A DNA stretch of 60,298 nucleotides from Chthoniobacteraceae bacterium (GCA_031409335.1 JANNWY010000179.1:1-60298), one strand, 5' to 3'; positions 22,711 through 27,371 are shown, counted from the stretch's first letter. A program made the numbers and translations. The notes: a model not told the origin generated them from the sequence alone.

Positions 22711-23061
22711 ATGTCAACGACTCACTACCTGATGGCAATCATCCTGCCGATGCTGCTTGGCCTTTGGGCGCAGTGGCGCGTGACGAACGCCTTTGGAAAA
22801 TTTTCGCCAATCCGCGCGACATCCAATATCTCCGGCGCTGATTCCGCGCGTCGGGTGCTCACCGGCGCGCAATTTCAGGATGTCGGGGTCGTCGAAATCG
22901 ACGCCATGCCCGGCGATCACCACGACCCGTCGCACCCGCGACTATGCCTCTCCAGCGCGGTGTATCACGAGCCGCCGATCGCGGCGCTCGGGATCGCCGC
23001 GCATGAGGCTGGCCACGCGATCCAAGACTACCTCCGCATGATGTCGCGCGATCGCAACTGA
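22711..23061 (+). pseudogene. YugP-like zinc metallopeptidase with a large internal deletion
   Basis: DHHDP..RLCLS, AAHEAGHAIQ followed almost at once by the C-terminus; 116 aa, roughly half the usual length. Confidence 0.7.
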
Positions 23062-23211
23062 TCCGACCCACCCTTTTTCCACCAACCCAACCACCCAGTG
23101 AAACCTCCCGAATTCCTCACAGGCAGACTTGCCGCAGGCAGCATCGCGCTGCCATCGCCGGTCGAAACCGCTTTCTCAATCACCGCCCGCCCTGTTACGA
23201 AGCCGCGGACG

Positions 23212-23796
23212 ATGCAGCAAGACGAGAGCCGCCAGCAAGATGATGAATTGATCGCCCGCGCCCAAACAGGCGAAGCATCGGCGTTCGACGTTCTCATCGT
23301 CAAATACAGCCAGCGGCTCTACGGCCTCGTCTATAACATGACGTCGAACCACGAGGATACGAACGACTTGATGCAGGACATCTGGGCGAAGGCGTATCGC
23401 TCGATCCCCGGTTTCCGCGGGAAATCATCGTTCTACACATGGATTCATTCCATCGGTGTGAACATGACGATCAACTTCCTGAAAAAGCGCAGCCGCCGCT
23501 ACCACCTGTCGCTCGACGACTTGGACTCGAACCTTCAGAACGACAAGGAATTCATCGAACTCACCGCGAGCAGCACGCCAGTGCGCGAGGCCGATCTCGG
23601 CGAGCTTCAGAAAAGATTGAACGAGGCAATGCAGAAGCTGTCGGAGGACCACCGCGCCGCCGTGACGATGTTTGACATTCAAGGCATGCCACACGCAGAA
23701 ATCGCAAAGATCCTCGGAATCTCCGAGGGAACCGTCCGCTCGCGCCTCTTCTACGCCCACCGGCAACTGCAAAATTTTCTGTCCGAATTTCATTAA
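23212..23796 (+). CDS. ECF RNA polymerase sigma factor (RpoE-like)
   Basis: DLMQDIWAKAY, FRGKSSFYTW, EIAKILGISEGTVRSRLFYA. Confidence 0.9.
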   Translation: MQQDESRQQDDELIARAQTGEASAFDVLIVKYSQRLYGLVYNMTSNHEDTNDLMQDIWAKAYRSIPGFRGKSSFYTWIHSIGVNMTINFLKKRSRRYHLSLDDLDSNLQNDKEFIELTASSTPVREADLGELQKRLNEAMQKLSEDHRAAVTMFDIQGMPHAEIAKILGISEGTVRSRLFYAHRQLQNFLSEFH

Positions 23797-23811
23797 AACG
23801 CCACGCCCTGC

Positions 23812-24291
23812 ATGACTGAAGAACAACTCACCGCCCTGCTCCGCATCAAACGTTTCGAGCAACCACCGCCGCAGTATTTCGACCGGCTCCTCGAAAGTGT
23901 TCATCGTCGGCAGCGCGAAGAATTGTTGCAGCGGCCGCTCTGGCGGATCGCCGTCGAGCGGGTCCAGACTTTCTTCAGCGAACACAGCATGGGCGGTGTT
24001 TCTTACGCGGGTGCGATGGCTGCCGCGCTCGTCGTCGGCGCGGGTGCGATCGCGATGATGACGCCGGTTGAAACGGAAAACTCCACGATCGCCGTCGCTC
24101 CCACGCCGAAGCAGGCGAAGCCCGGAAGTGTCCTCACGCTTCAGTCCCGCCTGGCTTCCACTCCGGCCCTCCCCGTCACGTTTGATTCTCAGCTTTCTCA
24201 ACCAACCCATTCGCAGTCCGGCAAATTCCGCCGTTACATCATCGACGCCCGTCCGGCGAGCTATGATCCGCAGGGTTCGGTCCAGTTTTAA
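23812..24291 (+). CDS. Putative single-pass anti-sigma factor
   Basis: Directly follows the ECF gene; LLRIKRFEQPPPQYF N-domain and one TM segment. Confidence 0.65.
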   Translation: MTEEQLTALLRIKRFEQPPPQYFDRLLESVHRRQREELLQRPLWRIAVERVQTFFSEHSMGGVSYAGAMAAALVVGAGAIAMMTPVETENSTIAVAPTPKQAKPGSVLTLQSRLASTPALPVTFDSQLSQPTHSQSGKFRRYIIDARPASYDPQGSVQF

Positions 24292-24298
24292 CCGGCGG

Positions 24299-25381
24299 AT
24301 GCGCCGCGCATTGAATCGGCCCGCGCACCGCCTTGCGCTGGGCTTGGGTTGCGCATTACTAGCCGCGCCGGTGCTGATCGCGCAGGAGGGCGCTGTTGCG
24401 GTGCCGTCCGTCGCCGAAGCGATCTCCCAAGAAGTCCGCGCCGTCTTTGAGAAATGCCGGAAGGCGGTCGTGAAAATCGAAGCGACGGACAATCACGGCG
24501 CGCTGTCTGGAACCGGATTTTTCATCGACCCAAACGGAACCGTCCTCACCTCCTACACCGTCGGCGGCGAATCGCGTGACATCCTGGTTTCCTGCAACGG
24601 AAAACGCCTGCCCGCGCGCAGGCTCGTGTGCGATCCGCGCAGTGGGATTGCCATTTTGAAAGTCGATGCCGAGACCCCTTTTGTGACGCTTGGGAAATCG
24701 CGCGAACTCGGAATTGCATCCCCGGTCGTCGCCGTCGGCTTCCCGATGGATCTGCCGGTTTCGCCGAGTTTTGGCACCATCGCCGGCTTCGACATCAAAT
24801 ATGGCGGGCGTTACTTCGCCACCATGCACATCCGCGCAAATGTGCCCGTGCAGCGTGGCCAGGGCGGCGCGCCGCTGCTCAATTTGCAAGGAGAAGTCGT
24901 CGGGATTTTGATCAGCAGTCTCGACGCGGGCAGCGCCGCATTCGCGCTGCCGATCGAGGCCGCTGACAAAGTGCGAAAGGATTTCATCCGCTTTGGCGAA
25001 GTCCGTCCGGGGTGGCTCGGAGTCGGTGTGCATCCCGCCATCGCCGCAGTCTCCGGCGCCACCGCGCGGATCGATCAGGTTTTTGCCGATGCCCCGGGAA
25101 TCAAGGCCGGGCTTGCAAAGGACGACATCATCCTCGAAGTCGGTGACCGGAAAATCCGCTCCACCGACGACGTGCGCGACGCTTCTTTTTTCACCACCGC
25201 CGACGATGAACTCACCGTGAAAGTCTGGCGCAACGGAGCCGAACTCGCGCTCACCGTCACGCCCGCGGATCATCCGACCAGCGCCCATGCATCCGTCCGC
25301 GAAATGCCGCGCCTCCAAGCCATCCCGACTTCCACCGAGCGCGTACTGCCAACGCCCGCGCCTTTCAGCGACGGACGTTAG
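24299..25381 (+). CDS. HtrA/DegP-like S1C protease-fold + PDZ protein with substituted catalytic triad
   Basis: SGTGFFID, VVAVGFP, GEVVGI, GWLGV PDZ motif; triad positions read TSYT, DPRSG and GQGG. Confidence 0.85.
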   Translation: MRRALNRPAHRLALGLGCALLAAPVLIAQEGAVAVPSVAEAISQEVRAVFEKCRKAVVKIEATDNHGALSGTGFFIDPNGTVLTSYTVGGESRDILVSCNGKRLPARRLVCDPRSGIAILKVDAETPFVTLGKSRELGIASPVVAVGFPMDLPVSPSFGTIAGFDIKYGGRYFATMHIRANVPVQRGQGGAPLLNLQGEVVGILISSLDAGSAAFALPIEAADKVRKDFIRFGEVRPGWLGVGVHPAIAAVSGATARIDQVFADAPGIKAGLAKDDIILEVGDRKIRSTDDVRDASFFTTADDELTVKVWRNGAELALTVTPADHPTSAHASVREMPRLQAIPTSTERVLPTPAPFSDGR

Positions 25382-25395
25382 CAGAGCACCCGCGC

Positions 25396-26025
25396 TCACT
25401 CGTCGCGCATCAGCACGAGTCGCGCATCATATTCGCCGAACAGCCGCAGCGAAAGCGTTCCCGAATCTTCATCGTTTTTCGTGCCTGAAACTTCGATCGG
25501 AAACTCCTGTTTCGACGGCACCCGTTTGTTGATCGGCACGCGAATCAGCGGCTCCTTGTCCTTCGCGTAAACCACCAATTCGAGTTCACCGGAAGCCGAT
25601 TTCGTCGCACCGAGGAAATACAAACCCACCTCGCGCTCCTTCTCGCCATCGCCCACCGTGATGTGGCGGATTTTGTCCGCCGCAGTCGGCTTTCCATCCT
25701 TTGCCACGCCGAGCTTCAAAGTCCAGAGCTGGCCCAGCGGTGTGATCGCCGAGTTCGCCGCCGCGAGCAGCTCGACAGTCAATTTGCGATCCGGCAGCAC
25801 GAGCAATCCCCTGCCCTCCGTCTTGATTCCCTGCGGCTTTTCCAAATCGGAATCGACCTCGAACGGCGCATCCGAAATACGTCCCGCGGCCTCCGTCAGT
25901 TTGCGCGCCGCCTTCCGCGCCTCCTCGATCTCGATCGACTCCTGCGCATGCAGCGCCGGCGAAAATGCAATGAGGGCCGCGAGGCCGATGAAGGTTTTTG
26001 TGAGGGTGAATGATGTGGTGTTCAT
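25396..26025 (-). CDS. Hypothetical secreted protein
   Basis: Signal peptide (FIGLAALIAFSPALHAQ); last gene of the ECF locus. Confidence 0.7.
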   Translation of the reverse strand: MNTTSFTLTKTFIGLAALIAFSPALHAQESIEIEEARKAARKLTEAAGRISDAPFEVDSDLEKPQGIKTEGRGLLVLPDRKLTVELLAAANSAITPLGQLWTLKLGVAKDGKPTAADKIRHITVGDGEKEREVGLYFLGATKSASGELELVVYAKDKEPLIRVPINKRVPSKQEFPIEVSGTKNDEDSGTLSLRLFGEYDARLVLMRDE

Positions 26026-26032
26026 GCCGCTG

Positions 26033-26060
26033 ATGACGACACCGCGTCGCGCGCGGTTAC
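26033..26060 (-). promoter_or_regulatory. ECF-type promoter GTAACC-N16-CGTCAT, probably leaderless
   Basis: -10 element ends 7 nt before ATG 26025; same motif precedes the ECF gene. Confidence 0.6.
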
Positions 26061-26455
26061 GGTTTTTTGCGCGGTTCGACATACAGCATCTCCAGCGGTG
26101 CCGCCTTCCGCTCGCTGCGCAGTTTCAAAAGTTCCGCCGCCTGCTCTGGCGTCAGTTCCTTTTCAATCTGCGCCACCATCCGTTCCAGGATCGCATTCGT
26201 CTTCACCATCGTCTCGTCACGCGTCGCCACGAGATCGACGACGTTCGCATCCATCACCGCCTGCACTTTTCCCAACTGCGCGGGCGTGAGCTTCAAGCGA
26301 CCTTCCAACACCCGCATCGCCGTCACATTCCACGCCTCCGGATTGCTGCGCCGGCGCGCTTTTTCCTTCGCGATCCGATAGCCCACGATGCCCCCACCGT
26401 ATCCGCTCAGCAACGCGATCATCACGAGCGCCATGATGATTTTCCAATACTTCAT
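26057..26455 (-). CDS. Membrane-anchored Spy/CpxP-like helical protein
   Basis: TM helix, then two LTPxQ motifs (LKLTPAQ, ELTPEQ). Confidence 0.65.
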   Translation of the reverse strand: MKYWKIIMALVMIALLSGYGGGIVGYRIAKEKARRRSNPEAWNVTAMRVLEGRLKLTPAQLGKVQAVMDANVVDLVATRDETMVKTNAILERMVAQIEKELTPEQAAELLKLRSERKAAPLEMLYVEPRKKP

Positions 26456-26733
26456 CACAGCGCCCAAAAAAGTTCGTCCACCGTGCTCTCGATCTCAGGG
26501 CGAAAACCATCGGCGTCATTGAGAGTCAGCGCATTCAGCGAAGCGACCACCGCCACCACGATCGCCAGTCCCGTGCAAAAACGCAGCGCCAGCCGCTGCC
26601 ACACCGTCGCCAGCGAAGGCTGCGCGCGCCACTTCGCCACCACGCGCGTCGCGAAGCCATACGGCGCCGTGTCGGCTGCGATCGGTTCGACCGCATCGGC
26701 GGCGATTTTCCATCTGCGTTCAAATTCATTCAT
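26455..26733 (-). CDS. Putative anti-sigma factor
   Basis: APYGFATRVVA motif plus TM helix; overlaps the ECF stop. Confidence 0.7.
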   Translation of the reverse strand: MNEFERRWKIAADAVEPIAADTAPYGFATRVVAKWRAQPSLATVWQRLALRFCTGLAIVVAVVASLNALTLNDADGFRPEIESTVDELFWAL

Positions 26734-27323
26734 AGCTCGGAGTCCTTGTACATTTGCAGTGCATGTTTGCGCAGCTTCTGTCGCGCGCGAAAGGCTCGCA
26801 CCTTCACCGCCGACTGCCCCCAGCCCGTCACCGCGCTGATCTCCGCCACCGGCCTTTCCTCCAAGTCGAGCAGCGTCAGCACCAGCCGGTCATCCGGCGC
26901 GAGAAAACTCAGGAGCCGCTCCACCGCCTCGCGCCCGCCCATCGTATCCACCGGCGTCGGTGCGGGCACTTCACCCACGAAAAACTCCACCCACTCGCGC
27001 TCCCCATCGCCCAAATCCGCCCAGCGCCACTCTGGCCGGCGCATCTCCGCGCGCAGCGCATCCAGGCAAGTGGTCACCGCCACGCGCGAAACCCAATGCT
27101 CGAACGGCACTCCATCGCGCCCTTCGTACTGCTCCAGCCGCGTGAACATTTTCATAAAAACCTCCTGCGCCAAATCCTCCTCCGCCACCCGCCGCGGCCG
27201 ATGCGCGCGCACGAGCTTGATGACGAGCGGATACAAATGCTCGACGAGTTCACGCGCCGCATCATCGTCGCCCTCGCGGACGCGCGCGAGACACGCAGGC
27301 ATCGCGAAAGTTTCATGCGGCAT
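26730..27323 (-). CDS. ECF RNA polymerase sigma factor
   Basis: EDLAQEVF, FEHWVSRVAVTTCLD, VKVRAFRARQKL. Confidence 0.9.
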   Translation of the reverse strand: MPHETFAMPACLARVREGDDDAARELVEHLYPLVIKLVRAHRPRRVAEEDLAQEVFMKMFTRLEQYEGRDGVPFEHWVSRVAVTTCLDALRAEMRRPEWRWADLGDGEREWVEFFVGEVPAPTPVDTMGGREAVERLLSFLAPDDRLVLTLLDLEERPVAEISAVTGWGQSAVKVRAFRARQKLRKHALQMYKDSEL

Positions 27324-27343
27324 GAAGACATTGCATCGCTTTG

Positions 27344-27371
27344 ATAACGCCGCGCGCAAGTCGGCGGTTAC
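27344..27371 (-). promoter_or_regulatory. ECF-type autoregulatory promoter GTAACC-N16-CGTTAT
   Basis: Bipartite AAC/CGT motif directly upstream of the ECF gene. Confidence 0.6.

Follow-up and report, generated by a model that had tools for sequence, protein, structure and literature searches.

A triad-less HtrA homolog conserved beside an ECF sigma factor and a putative anti-sigma factor in Verrucomicrobiia

Results

A three-gene locus with an HtrA homolog that lacks the catalytic residues

Genomes of the class Verrucomicrobiia carry a real and conserved pseudoprotease variant of the sigma/anti-sigma/HtrA arrangement that is apparently undescribed. Its third gene encodes an HtrA-family protein (hereafter the dead HtrA) in which all three residues of the catalytic triad are replaced. 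The locus studied here lies in a window of 60,298 nucleotides from a Chthoniobacteraceae bacterium (GCA_031409335.1 JANNWY010000179.1:1-60298). A first-pass annotation had placed a sigma/anti-sigma/HtrA trio at positions 23212..25381, and three undamaged open reading frames, all on the same strand (+), were recovered there: a sigma factor, a gene with one transmembrane segment (TM) and the dead HtrA. The features of the locus are:

23193..23200 (+), TGnTA element, likely an extended -10, 19 nt before the sigma ATG
23212..23796 (+), ECF sigma factor, RpoE-like, 194 aa (Pfam Sigma70_r2 and r4_2)
23812..24291 (+), putative anti-sigma factor, 159 aa, ending SVQF (from position and topology)
24232..24288 (+), C-terminal tail of the putative anti-sigma, RYIIDARPASY..SVQF (family consensus PRYVLDxxPVSYE..F-COOH)
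24263..25381 (+), triad-less HtrA with signal peptide, chymotrypsin-fold domain and one PDZ domain (alternative start ATG 24299)
24557..24559 (+), Thr87 at the catalytic His position (TSYT), from alignment to solved HtrA chains
24644..24646 (+), Gly116 at the catalytic Asp position (DPRSG), from the same alignment
24863..24865 (+), Gly189 at the catalytic Ser position (GQGGA), from the same alignment
25004..25267 (+), PDZ domain with carboxylate-binding loop RPGWLGV and pocket helix (D291, A295, F297), from Pfam and conservation

The sigma factor has regions 2 and 4 only and matches TIGR02937 at 112 bits (cut-off 42.9), as expected of an ECF sigma. Its best NCBIfam match is RpoE (TIGR02939) at 144 bits, below the cut-off of 236, and the protein at +1 has no RseA family match, which together place the locus outside RpoE/ECF02. 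A homolog of the sigma at E<=1e-40 is present in 234 of the 251 class genomes surveyed, and its dN/dS values are 0.025-0.074. The TGnTA element occurs within 60 nt upstream of the sigma gene in 77 of 94 near loci and at exactly -19 in 41 (shuffled sequences: mean 12, maximum 20; control window: 2/94). Because this conserved element sits 19 nt before the sigma start, it is likely the extended -10 of a housekeeping promoter, which would give a very short leader and a near-leaderless transcript. A generic promoter scan returned no match. An autoregulatory ECF promoter was considered and rejected, as no bipartite motif was enriched among the 94 upstream regions.

The neighboring genes include, upstream of the sigma, a Zn_peptidase_2 gene (22711-23061, +) of 116 aa that covers Pfam positions 1-102 of 218; it is about 206-231 aa long in 20 related loci and looks truncated here, and a second Zn_peptidase_2 copy lies on contig C279. 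Downstream, a minus-strand cluster (26057-27359, -) converges on the studied operon. It consists of a second ECF sigma (26730-27359, -), a putative anti-sigma of 92 aa and a helical protein of 136 aa showing weak Metal_resist/LTXXQ matches, and is itself followed by an uncharacterized, secreted-looking protein of 208 aa (25396-26022, -).

The third gene matches Trypsin_2 (66 bits) and PDZ_2 (44 bits) in Pfam, a protease fold followed by a PDZ domain as in the HtrA/Deg (S1C) family, but the His-Asp-Ser triad of that family is missing and all NCBIfam HtrA models score far under their cut-offs. The first-pass annotation had described an intact HtrA-like gene with His replaced by Thr, Asp by Gly and Ser by Gly. 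The reading frame is indeed undamaged, with both domains and a signal peptide read from the sequence, and alignment to solved DegP-like/MucD/HtrA1 chains gives T87, G116 and G189 at the triad positions (residues numbered from ATG 24299). Contigs from two other runs of the same study have no differing letter at these three codons. The database names given to the family, 'serine protease Do' or 'S1C serine protease', are wrong as judged by sequence.

The N-terminus of the dead HtrA has a basic n-region and a hydrophobic stretch ending in ..VLIA, with QE after the presumed cleavage point, and reads as a cleavable signal peptide rather than a membrane anchor. A site-1 sensor of the DegS/AlgW kind combines an N-terminal anchor with cleavage of the anti-sigma, and the dead HtrA falls outside this class because it has no triad. 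The AlphaFold model of residues 36-330 (pLDDT 94.6, pTM 0.90) predicts that an intact HtrA fold is kept, with DegP/DegQ as the top Foldseek matches (TM 0.80-0.87). The NCBIfam MamO model scores 36.7 bits against a cut-off of 800, and Pfam gave no match to the MucB_RseB fold.

Loss of the triad is shared by relatives and is not decay

The closest named relatives of the dead HtrA are from Chthoniobacteraceae MAGs (70-81% identity). Among the query and the best 119 homologs listed, position 87 is Thr in 100, Ser in 19 and a gap in one, position 116 is Gly in all 120, and position 189 is Gly in 116, Ser in three and Ala in one. Searches of relatives, class and phylum yielded 128 loci, 112 of them distinct and almost all from Verrucomicrobiia. 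In this set, which was selected for the best matches to the query or to its profile, His at 87 and Asp at 116 never occur, Ser at 189 occurs in eight loci (alone), and the full triad is found in 0/112; seven loci have a His two residues off position 87 without Asp or Ser. When 1.84 billion representatives were searched with a profile (unindexed), the best 150 proteins included 16 intact triads, all of them in 12 multi-domain proteins of 584-2393 aa. Several multi-domain chains (P0197, P0234, P0236, P0239, P0251, P0252 and P0255) combine an intact HtrA module with at least one triad-less module.

Selection on the dead HtrA was estimated against five relatives (NG86), which gave dN/dS of 0.094-0.157 overall, 0.08-0.12 for the protease domain and 0.13-0.26 for the PDZ, from pairs with dS of 0.6-1.7 of which the distant ones are near saturation. 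A quick tree, unrooted and with the rows of family f20 on long branches, separates 45 dead from 29 triad-bearing Verrucomicrobial HtrAs by one branch (SH-aLRT 99). The first-pass annotation had held that retention of H-D-S by close orthologs would mean recent decay and had called for dN/dS estimates: the triad is kept in none of the 120 proteins and none of the 112 loci, and dN/dS of 0.09-0.16 indicates purifying selection. Because the triad is lost throughout these proteins and loci while purifying selection acts, the selected non-proteolytic role that had been proposed appears well supported at the sequence level.

Recent decay or an assembly error in an ordinary rpoE-rseA-mucD-type locus would fit the gene order, which is the same as in loci with active proteases. 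However, the identical triad-site codons in contigs of other runs, the class-wide loss of the triad, dN/dS of about 0.1 and the single branch between dead and active proteins leave this explanation a negligible chance, and we regard it as already refuted. It is also very improbable that the protein is still a hydrolase through a different catalytic set, for example one with H177, S85 or T175. Although H177, T175 and R179 hardly vary among close relatives, over 109 loci H177 is present in only 78 (Tyr in 24) and S85 in 48. A replacement triad is unlikely because none of the columns with Ser, Cys or His is conserved to 75% in the 112- and 109-locus sets.

Distribution and synteny

We surveyed 251 class genomes with a 58-row profile, calling a dead HtrA at >200 bits (the next score was 184), and found it in at least 136. 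This count is a floor because more diverged copies, scoring 70-171 bits, occupy the same locus in family f20 and in one f77 genome. A phylum sample of 201 genomes gave one match outside the class. The sigma lies upstream in 110 of the 112 distinct loci, and a one-TM gene stands between sigma and HtrA in 109. Other degenerate trypsin/PDZ proteins, scoring 54-62 bits against the profile, were seen at L228:1982-3313, L233:2244-3392 and L158:2379-3494; they adjoin or overlap a triad-bearing S1 protease and are possibly another active/dead pair.

The putative anti-sigma ends like an outer-membrane protein

The middle protein has a conserved helical N-terminal part, one TM (about residues 62-83), a variable linker whose periplasmic stretch is predicted to be disordered, and a conserved tail. 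Its structural model (pLDDT 64, pTM 0.23) places helices at 3-14, 22-40, 43-57 and 62-83 with low confidence. The layout of a class I (ASD) one-TM anti-sigma, a +1 gene with a helical N-domain and one TM, recurs in 109 of 112 loci. Searches of Pfam, NCBIfam, PDB and Foldseek gave no match, and the nearest atlas cluster with a family (score 0.89), in which 13% of members have zf-HC2, is a weak lead only. The protein is likely an anti-sigma, a putative identity that rests on synteny and topology because Pfam, NCBIfam and PDB returned no match.

The tail ends in an invariant Phe in 72 aligned tails, which had been chosen for the PRYVLDxxPVSYE..F motif, and the motif Tyr stands at -15 in 45 of the 73 tails that have it. 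Over 109 loci the last residue of the partner protein is Phe in 98, Tyr in 10 and Asn in one, so that 108/109 end in F/Y, compared with 1/110 sigmas, 0/112 HtrAs and 4.5% of the 4083 long reading frames of the genome. This conservation strongly backs an earlier remark that SVQF resembles a PDZ ligand. The aromatic end resembles the native ends of outer-membrane proteins (OMPs): three of the genome's four Omp85 matches end in YQF, FAF and SAF, and all five TonB receptors checked (of seven matches) end in F. YxF ends of OMPs are described as PDZ ligands of DegS and DegP in passages of PMC11642142.

The HtrA start usually falls inside the anti-sigma gene, most commonly at an offset of -23. In the studied locus the start is most likely the in-frame ATG at 24263, which lies within the TAT-GAT codons of the anti-sigma (its Tyr codon) and overlaps its last 29 nt, because the database entry has 372 aa and because 46 of the 49 loci with the [ST][YH][ED] tail motif have an ATG in the HtrA frame. 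In these 49 loci the Tyr codon is TAT in 45, whereas Tyr codons are used about 50:50 in the HtrA body. Since this codon carries the HtrA start, conservation of the SYE motif is partly an effect of the overlap and, to that extent, says nothing about binding. Overlap does not explain the aromatic end, as 21 of 22 loci in which the genes cannot overlap still end in F/Y. The overlap itself suggests translational coupling and roughly 1:1 synthesis of the two proteins.

Two further ideas about the tail and the overlap were dropped. Apparent anti-sigma/HtrA fusions (P0190 and P0273) are singletons with frameshifted middles and were taken as sequencing artefacts, a search for longer proteins giving one match among 3365 candidates. 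The idea that PVS mimics the RseA site at Val148, after which DegS cuts according to passages of PMC8098476, was set aside because the start codon in the overlap accounts for the Tyr-Glu part; inspection by eye also showed PV[SN][FY]-like words in many lineages from which the dead gene is missing.

Conservation points to the PDZ as the working part

Over 109 loci, some of the strongest conservation is found in the loop and the pocket helix of the PDZ (G241 in 109, W239 in 101, D291 in 107, F/Y297 in 109), and the loop carries the HtrA/Deg carboxylate-binding motif as set out in passages of PMC11642142. The old His loop, L1 positions 185-189 except G187, and L2 mostly show an entropy of about 2-3 bits. 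In family f20 only the PDZ still has a Pfam match; that of the protease domain is lost. Because the pocket is conserved, the former active site is variable and f20 keeps the PDZ match only, the PDZ is, from these sequences, likely the working part of the dead HtrA. We did not rely on the idea of a tail trapped in the dead active-site groove, which the fixed -15 spacing of the motif Tyr might suggest, because the columns of the groove vary. Passages of PMC3169616 provide background on the PDZ1 cleft.

Conservation elsewhere in the protein bears on a positive adaptor, in which the dead HtrA would bind the tail and deliver the anti-sigma to an active protease, or in which mixed trimers would pass the PDZ signal to an active subunit. 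HtrAs form trimers with cis and trans activation (passages of PMC11642142), L3 is conserved over 109 loci (F173 in 99, R179 in 104, and also T175), as is the N-terminal helix face, and the tail evidence fits such a role equally well. In one genome only (L032:3-1382, -), the gene immediately downstream of the dead HtrA encodes an active, DegP-like HtrA. Against this, in our alignment the equivalent of DegS Arg178 is a variable column (position 166, 3.5 bits) and the Gln191 position is Arg179; an active HtrA is nearby in just one of the first 128 loci, most of which reach only 1.5-3 kb downstream. We consider the adaptor unlikely.

Natural losses of the dead gene

Orthologous sigma loci were also taken from genomes without a high-scoring dead HtrA, and 165 loci were compared after one duplicate and one locus without a callable anti-sigma were left out. 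The gene was called absent when there was no adjacent copy and no match >200 bits; nine loss genomes were searched whole at loose thresholds and contained triad-bearing HtrAs and, in two of them, an unrelated-looking, low-scoring degenerate protein. The tail is aromatic in 112 of 115 loci with an adjacent dead HtrA vs 20 of 50 without. Two f20/g41 loci keep the dead HtrA with an anti-sigma ending in Met, and one further locus ends in Asn.

Four lineages lack the dead gene; the aromatic tail is lost in two of them (f24, 1/5; a many-family group, 2/26) and kept in the other two (f19, 12/13; f13/g33, 5/6). The sigma tree requires five changes, and four independent contrasts gave about two in the same direction, none opposite and two unchanged, a sign test being not significant (median p 0.5). 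These results indicate that tail and dead gene are linked, but that the tail can persist without the dead gene. The Phe end must have a use that does not need the dead HtrA, because f19 and f13/g33 keep it. The f19 anti-sigmas (L131-L133, L208-L217) are longer, with reading frames of about 270-350 aa and no adjacent dead HtrA, and their ends are conserved and like the last beta-strand of OMPs (..GVSIQF, ..RVSIKF).

The losses are relevant to a reading in which the dead HtrA is only a chaperone, a periplasmic holdase for OMPs or unfolded proteins, while the Phe tail is read by the PDZ of an active HtrA, by the PDZ of RseP or by BAM. Consistent with it are the two lineages in which the Phe end persists although the dead gene is missing, and the OMP-like strands of the f19 tails. 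Protease-dead HtrA variants keep chaperone activity (passages of PMC11642142), the model is closest to the protease+PDZ1 part of DegP/DegQ, and the third gene of rpoE-rseA-mucD belongs to the sigma-E operon (passages of PMC4229105). However, the dead HtrA has a single PDZ only and a poorly conserved substrate groove, the overlap of its start codon with the anti-sigma gene has been maintained, the Phe end disappeared together with it in two lineages, and the genome already has three canonical HtrAs. We find a purely chaperone role rather doubtful.

Discussion

A possible mechanism

The three other HtrA+PDZ proteins of the genome have catalytic His and Ser motifs, and an RseP scores over its cut-off. 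No RseB match was found in the genome, and 22 of 101 class genomes show only partial matches, at model positions of about 70-172. In Proteobacteria, RseB and MucB shield the anti-sigma (passages of PMC8545111 and PMC7400510), and cleavage by DegS and AlgW follows the binding of OMP or MucE tails to the PDZ of these proteases (passages of PMC8545111, PMC7400510 and PMC8098476). By analogy, we see an even chance that the dead HtrA acts as an RseB-like shield, its PDZ holding the anti-sigma tail until unassembled OMP tails displace the shield, whereupon an active HtrA and RseP degrade the anti-sigma.

In an unstressed cell, the PDZ of the dead HtrA would grip the Phe-ended tail, and the bound protein would shield the disordered periplasmic part of the anti-sigma much as RseB and MucB do. 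Unassembled OMPs, which have the same hydrophobic-x-Phe end, would push the tail out of the PDZ pocket by competition. The anti-sigma would next be degraded, first by one of the active HtrAs and then by RseP, and the sigma set free. In this scheme the half of DegS that reads the signal would have been kept and the half that cuts would have been discarded, so that the OMP signal would act by displacement and not by switching on a protease. We infer all of these parts: the binding, the displacement, its direction and the downstream proteases. A shield is our favored reading over adaptor and chaperone, although sequence would not reveal the direction that separates shield from adaptor.

A fuller and more tentative proposal, to which we give somewhat less than an even chance, is that the system is an inverted DegS. 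An ancestral stress-sensing HtrA would have lost its triad once near the base of Verrucomicrobiia and become a PDZ clamp on the OMP-mimicking tail of its own anti-sigma, from which unfolded OMP C-termini compete it off, in more than half of the sampled genomes of the class.

Verrucomicrobiota are an abundant phylum of soil, freshwater and gut, and to our knowledge envelope-stress signalling in them is essentially unstudied. If the clamp mechanism is true, a pseudoenzyme would regulate a regulated-proteolysis cascade, and the OMP C-terminal signal of envelope stress would be read in a new way, by binding instead of cutting. The mechanism is directly and cheaply testable with one soluble protein and a 20-residue peptide, and the lineages that lost the dead gene, with or without the tail, are ready natural controls.

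Comparison with known systems

Our literature search, which covered listings and the starts of abstracts with most subscription papers outside its reach, found no description of a sigma/anti-sigma/dead-HtrA unit; nor did the literature searched contain the displacement mechanism, which in itself appears plausible. The main text of the ECF re-classification (PMC7826278), in the passages covered, mentions no Verrucomicrobia, trypsin, PDZ, HtrA or DegS, and the part of its supplement covered, other tables of which may bear on the point, has no Verrucomicrobial group with an HtrA-like neighbor. Its groups ECF273 and ECF277 are similar to the unit studied here in having an ECF sigma, a one-TM anti-sigma at +1 and a PDZ protein at +2; unlike that unit, the passages on them, compared by description only, mention neither Verrucomicrobia nor a dead protease.

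The order of ECF sigma, anti-sigma and HtrA-family gene is known, with ordinary HtrAs, from rpoE-rseA-mucD of Xanthomonas campestris and Stenotrophomonas maltophilia (passages of PMC4229105) and from the sigE / rseA-htrA locus of M. tuberculosis (passages of PMC10027907). The present locus shares this order with them; its sigma best matches RpoE, and the best PDB matches of its third gene are DegP-like/MucD/HtrA1. It differs from both in that its HtrA is triad-less across the class, has one PDZ and overlaps the anti-sigma gene, and in that its anti-sigma has no known family and an OMP-like aromatic tail. Trypsin-fold pseudoproteases related to HtrA and kept for a non-catalytic role are also described in magnetotactic bacteria, namely MamO and inactive copies of MamE, but MamO has part of the triad left, uses a His pair to bind metal, carries a fused TauE domain and has no sigma link (passages of PMC4794232).

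Closest in the proposed function are the sigma-E/RseA/RseB/DegS/RseP system of E. coli and AlgU/MucA/MucB/AlgW of P. aeruginosa, which likewise have a one-TM anti-sigma (passages of PMC8545111, PMC7400510, PMC8098476 and PMC11642142). The job suggested for the dead HtrA by analogy is that of RseB/MucB, although RseB has a different fold and senses lipid whereas the protein here has the HtrA fold and its genome gave no RseB match. With DegS it shares the protease+single-PDZ architecture and PDZ ligands ending in x-Phe, and RseP is present in the genome, but DegS and AlgW cut the anti-sigma, which the dead HtrA, judged by its residues, should be unable to do. In contrast to both the E. coli and the P. 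aeruginosa systems, here it is the anti-sigma that bears the x-Phe ligand.
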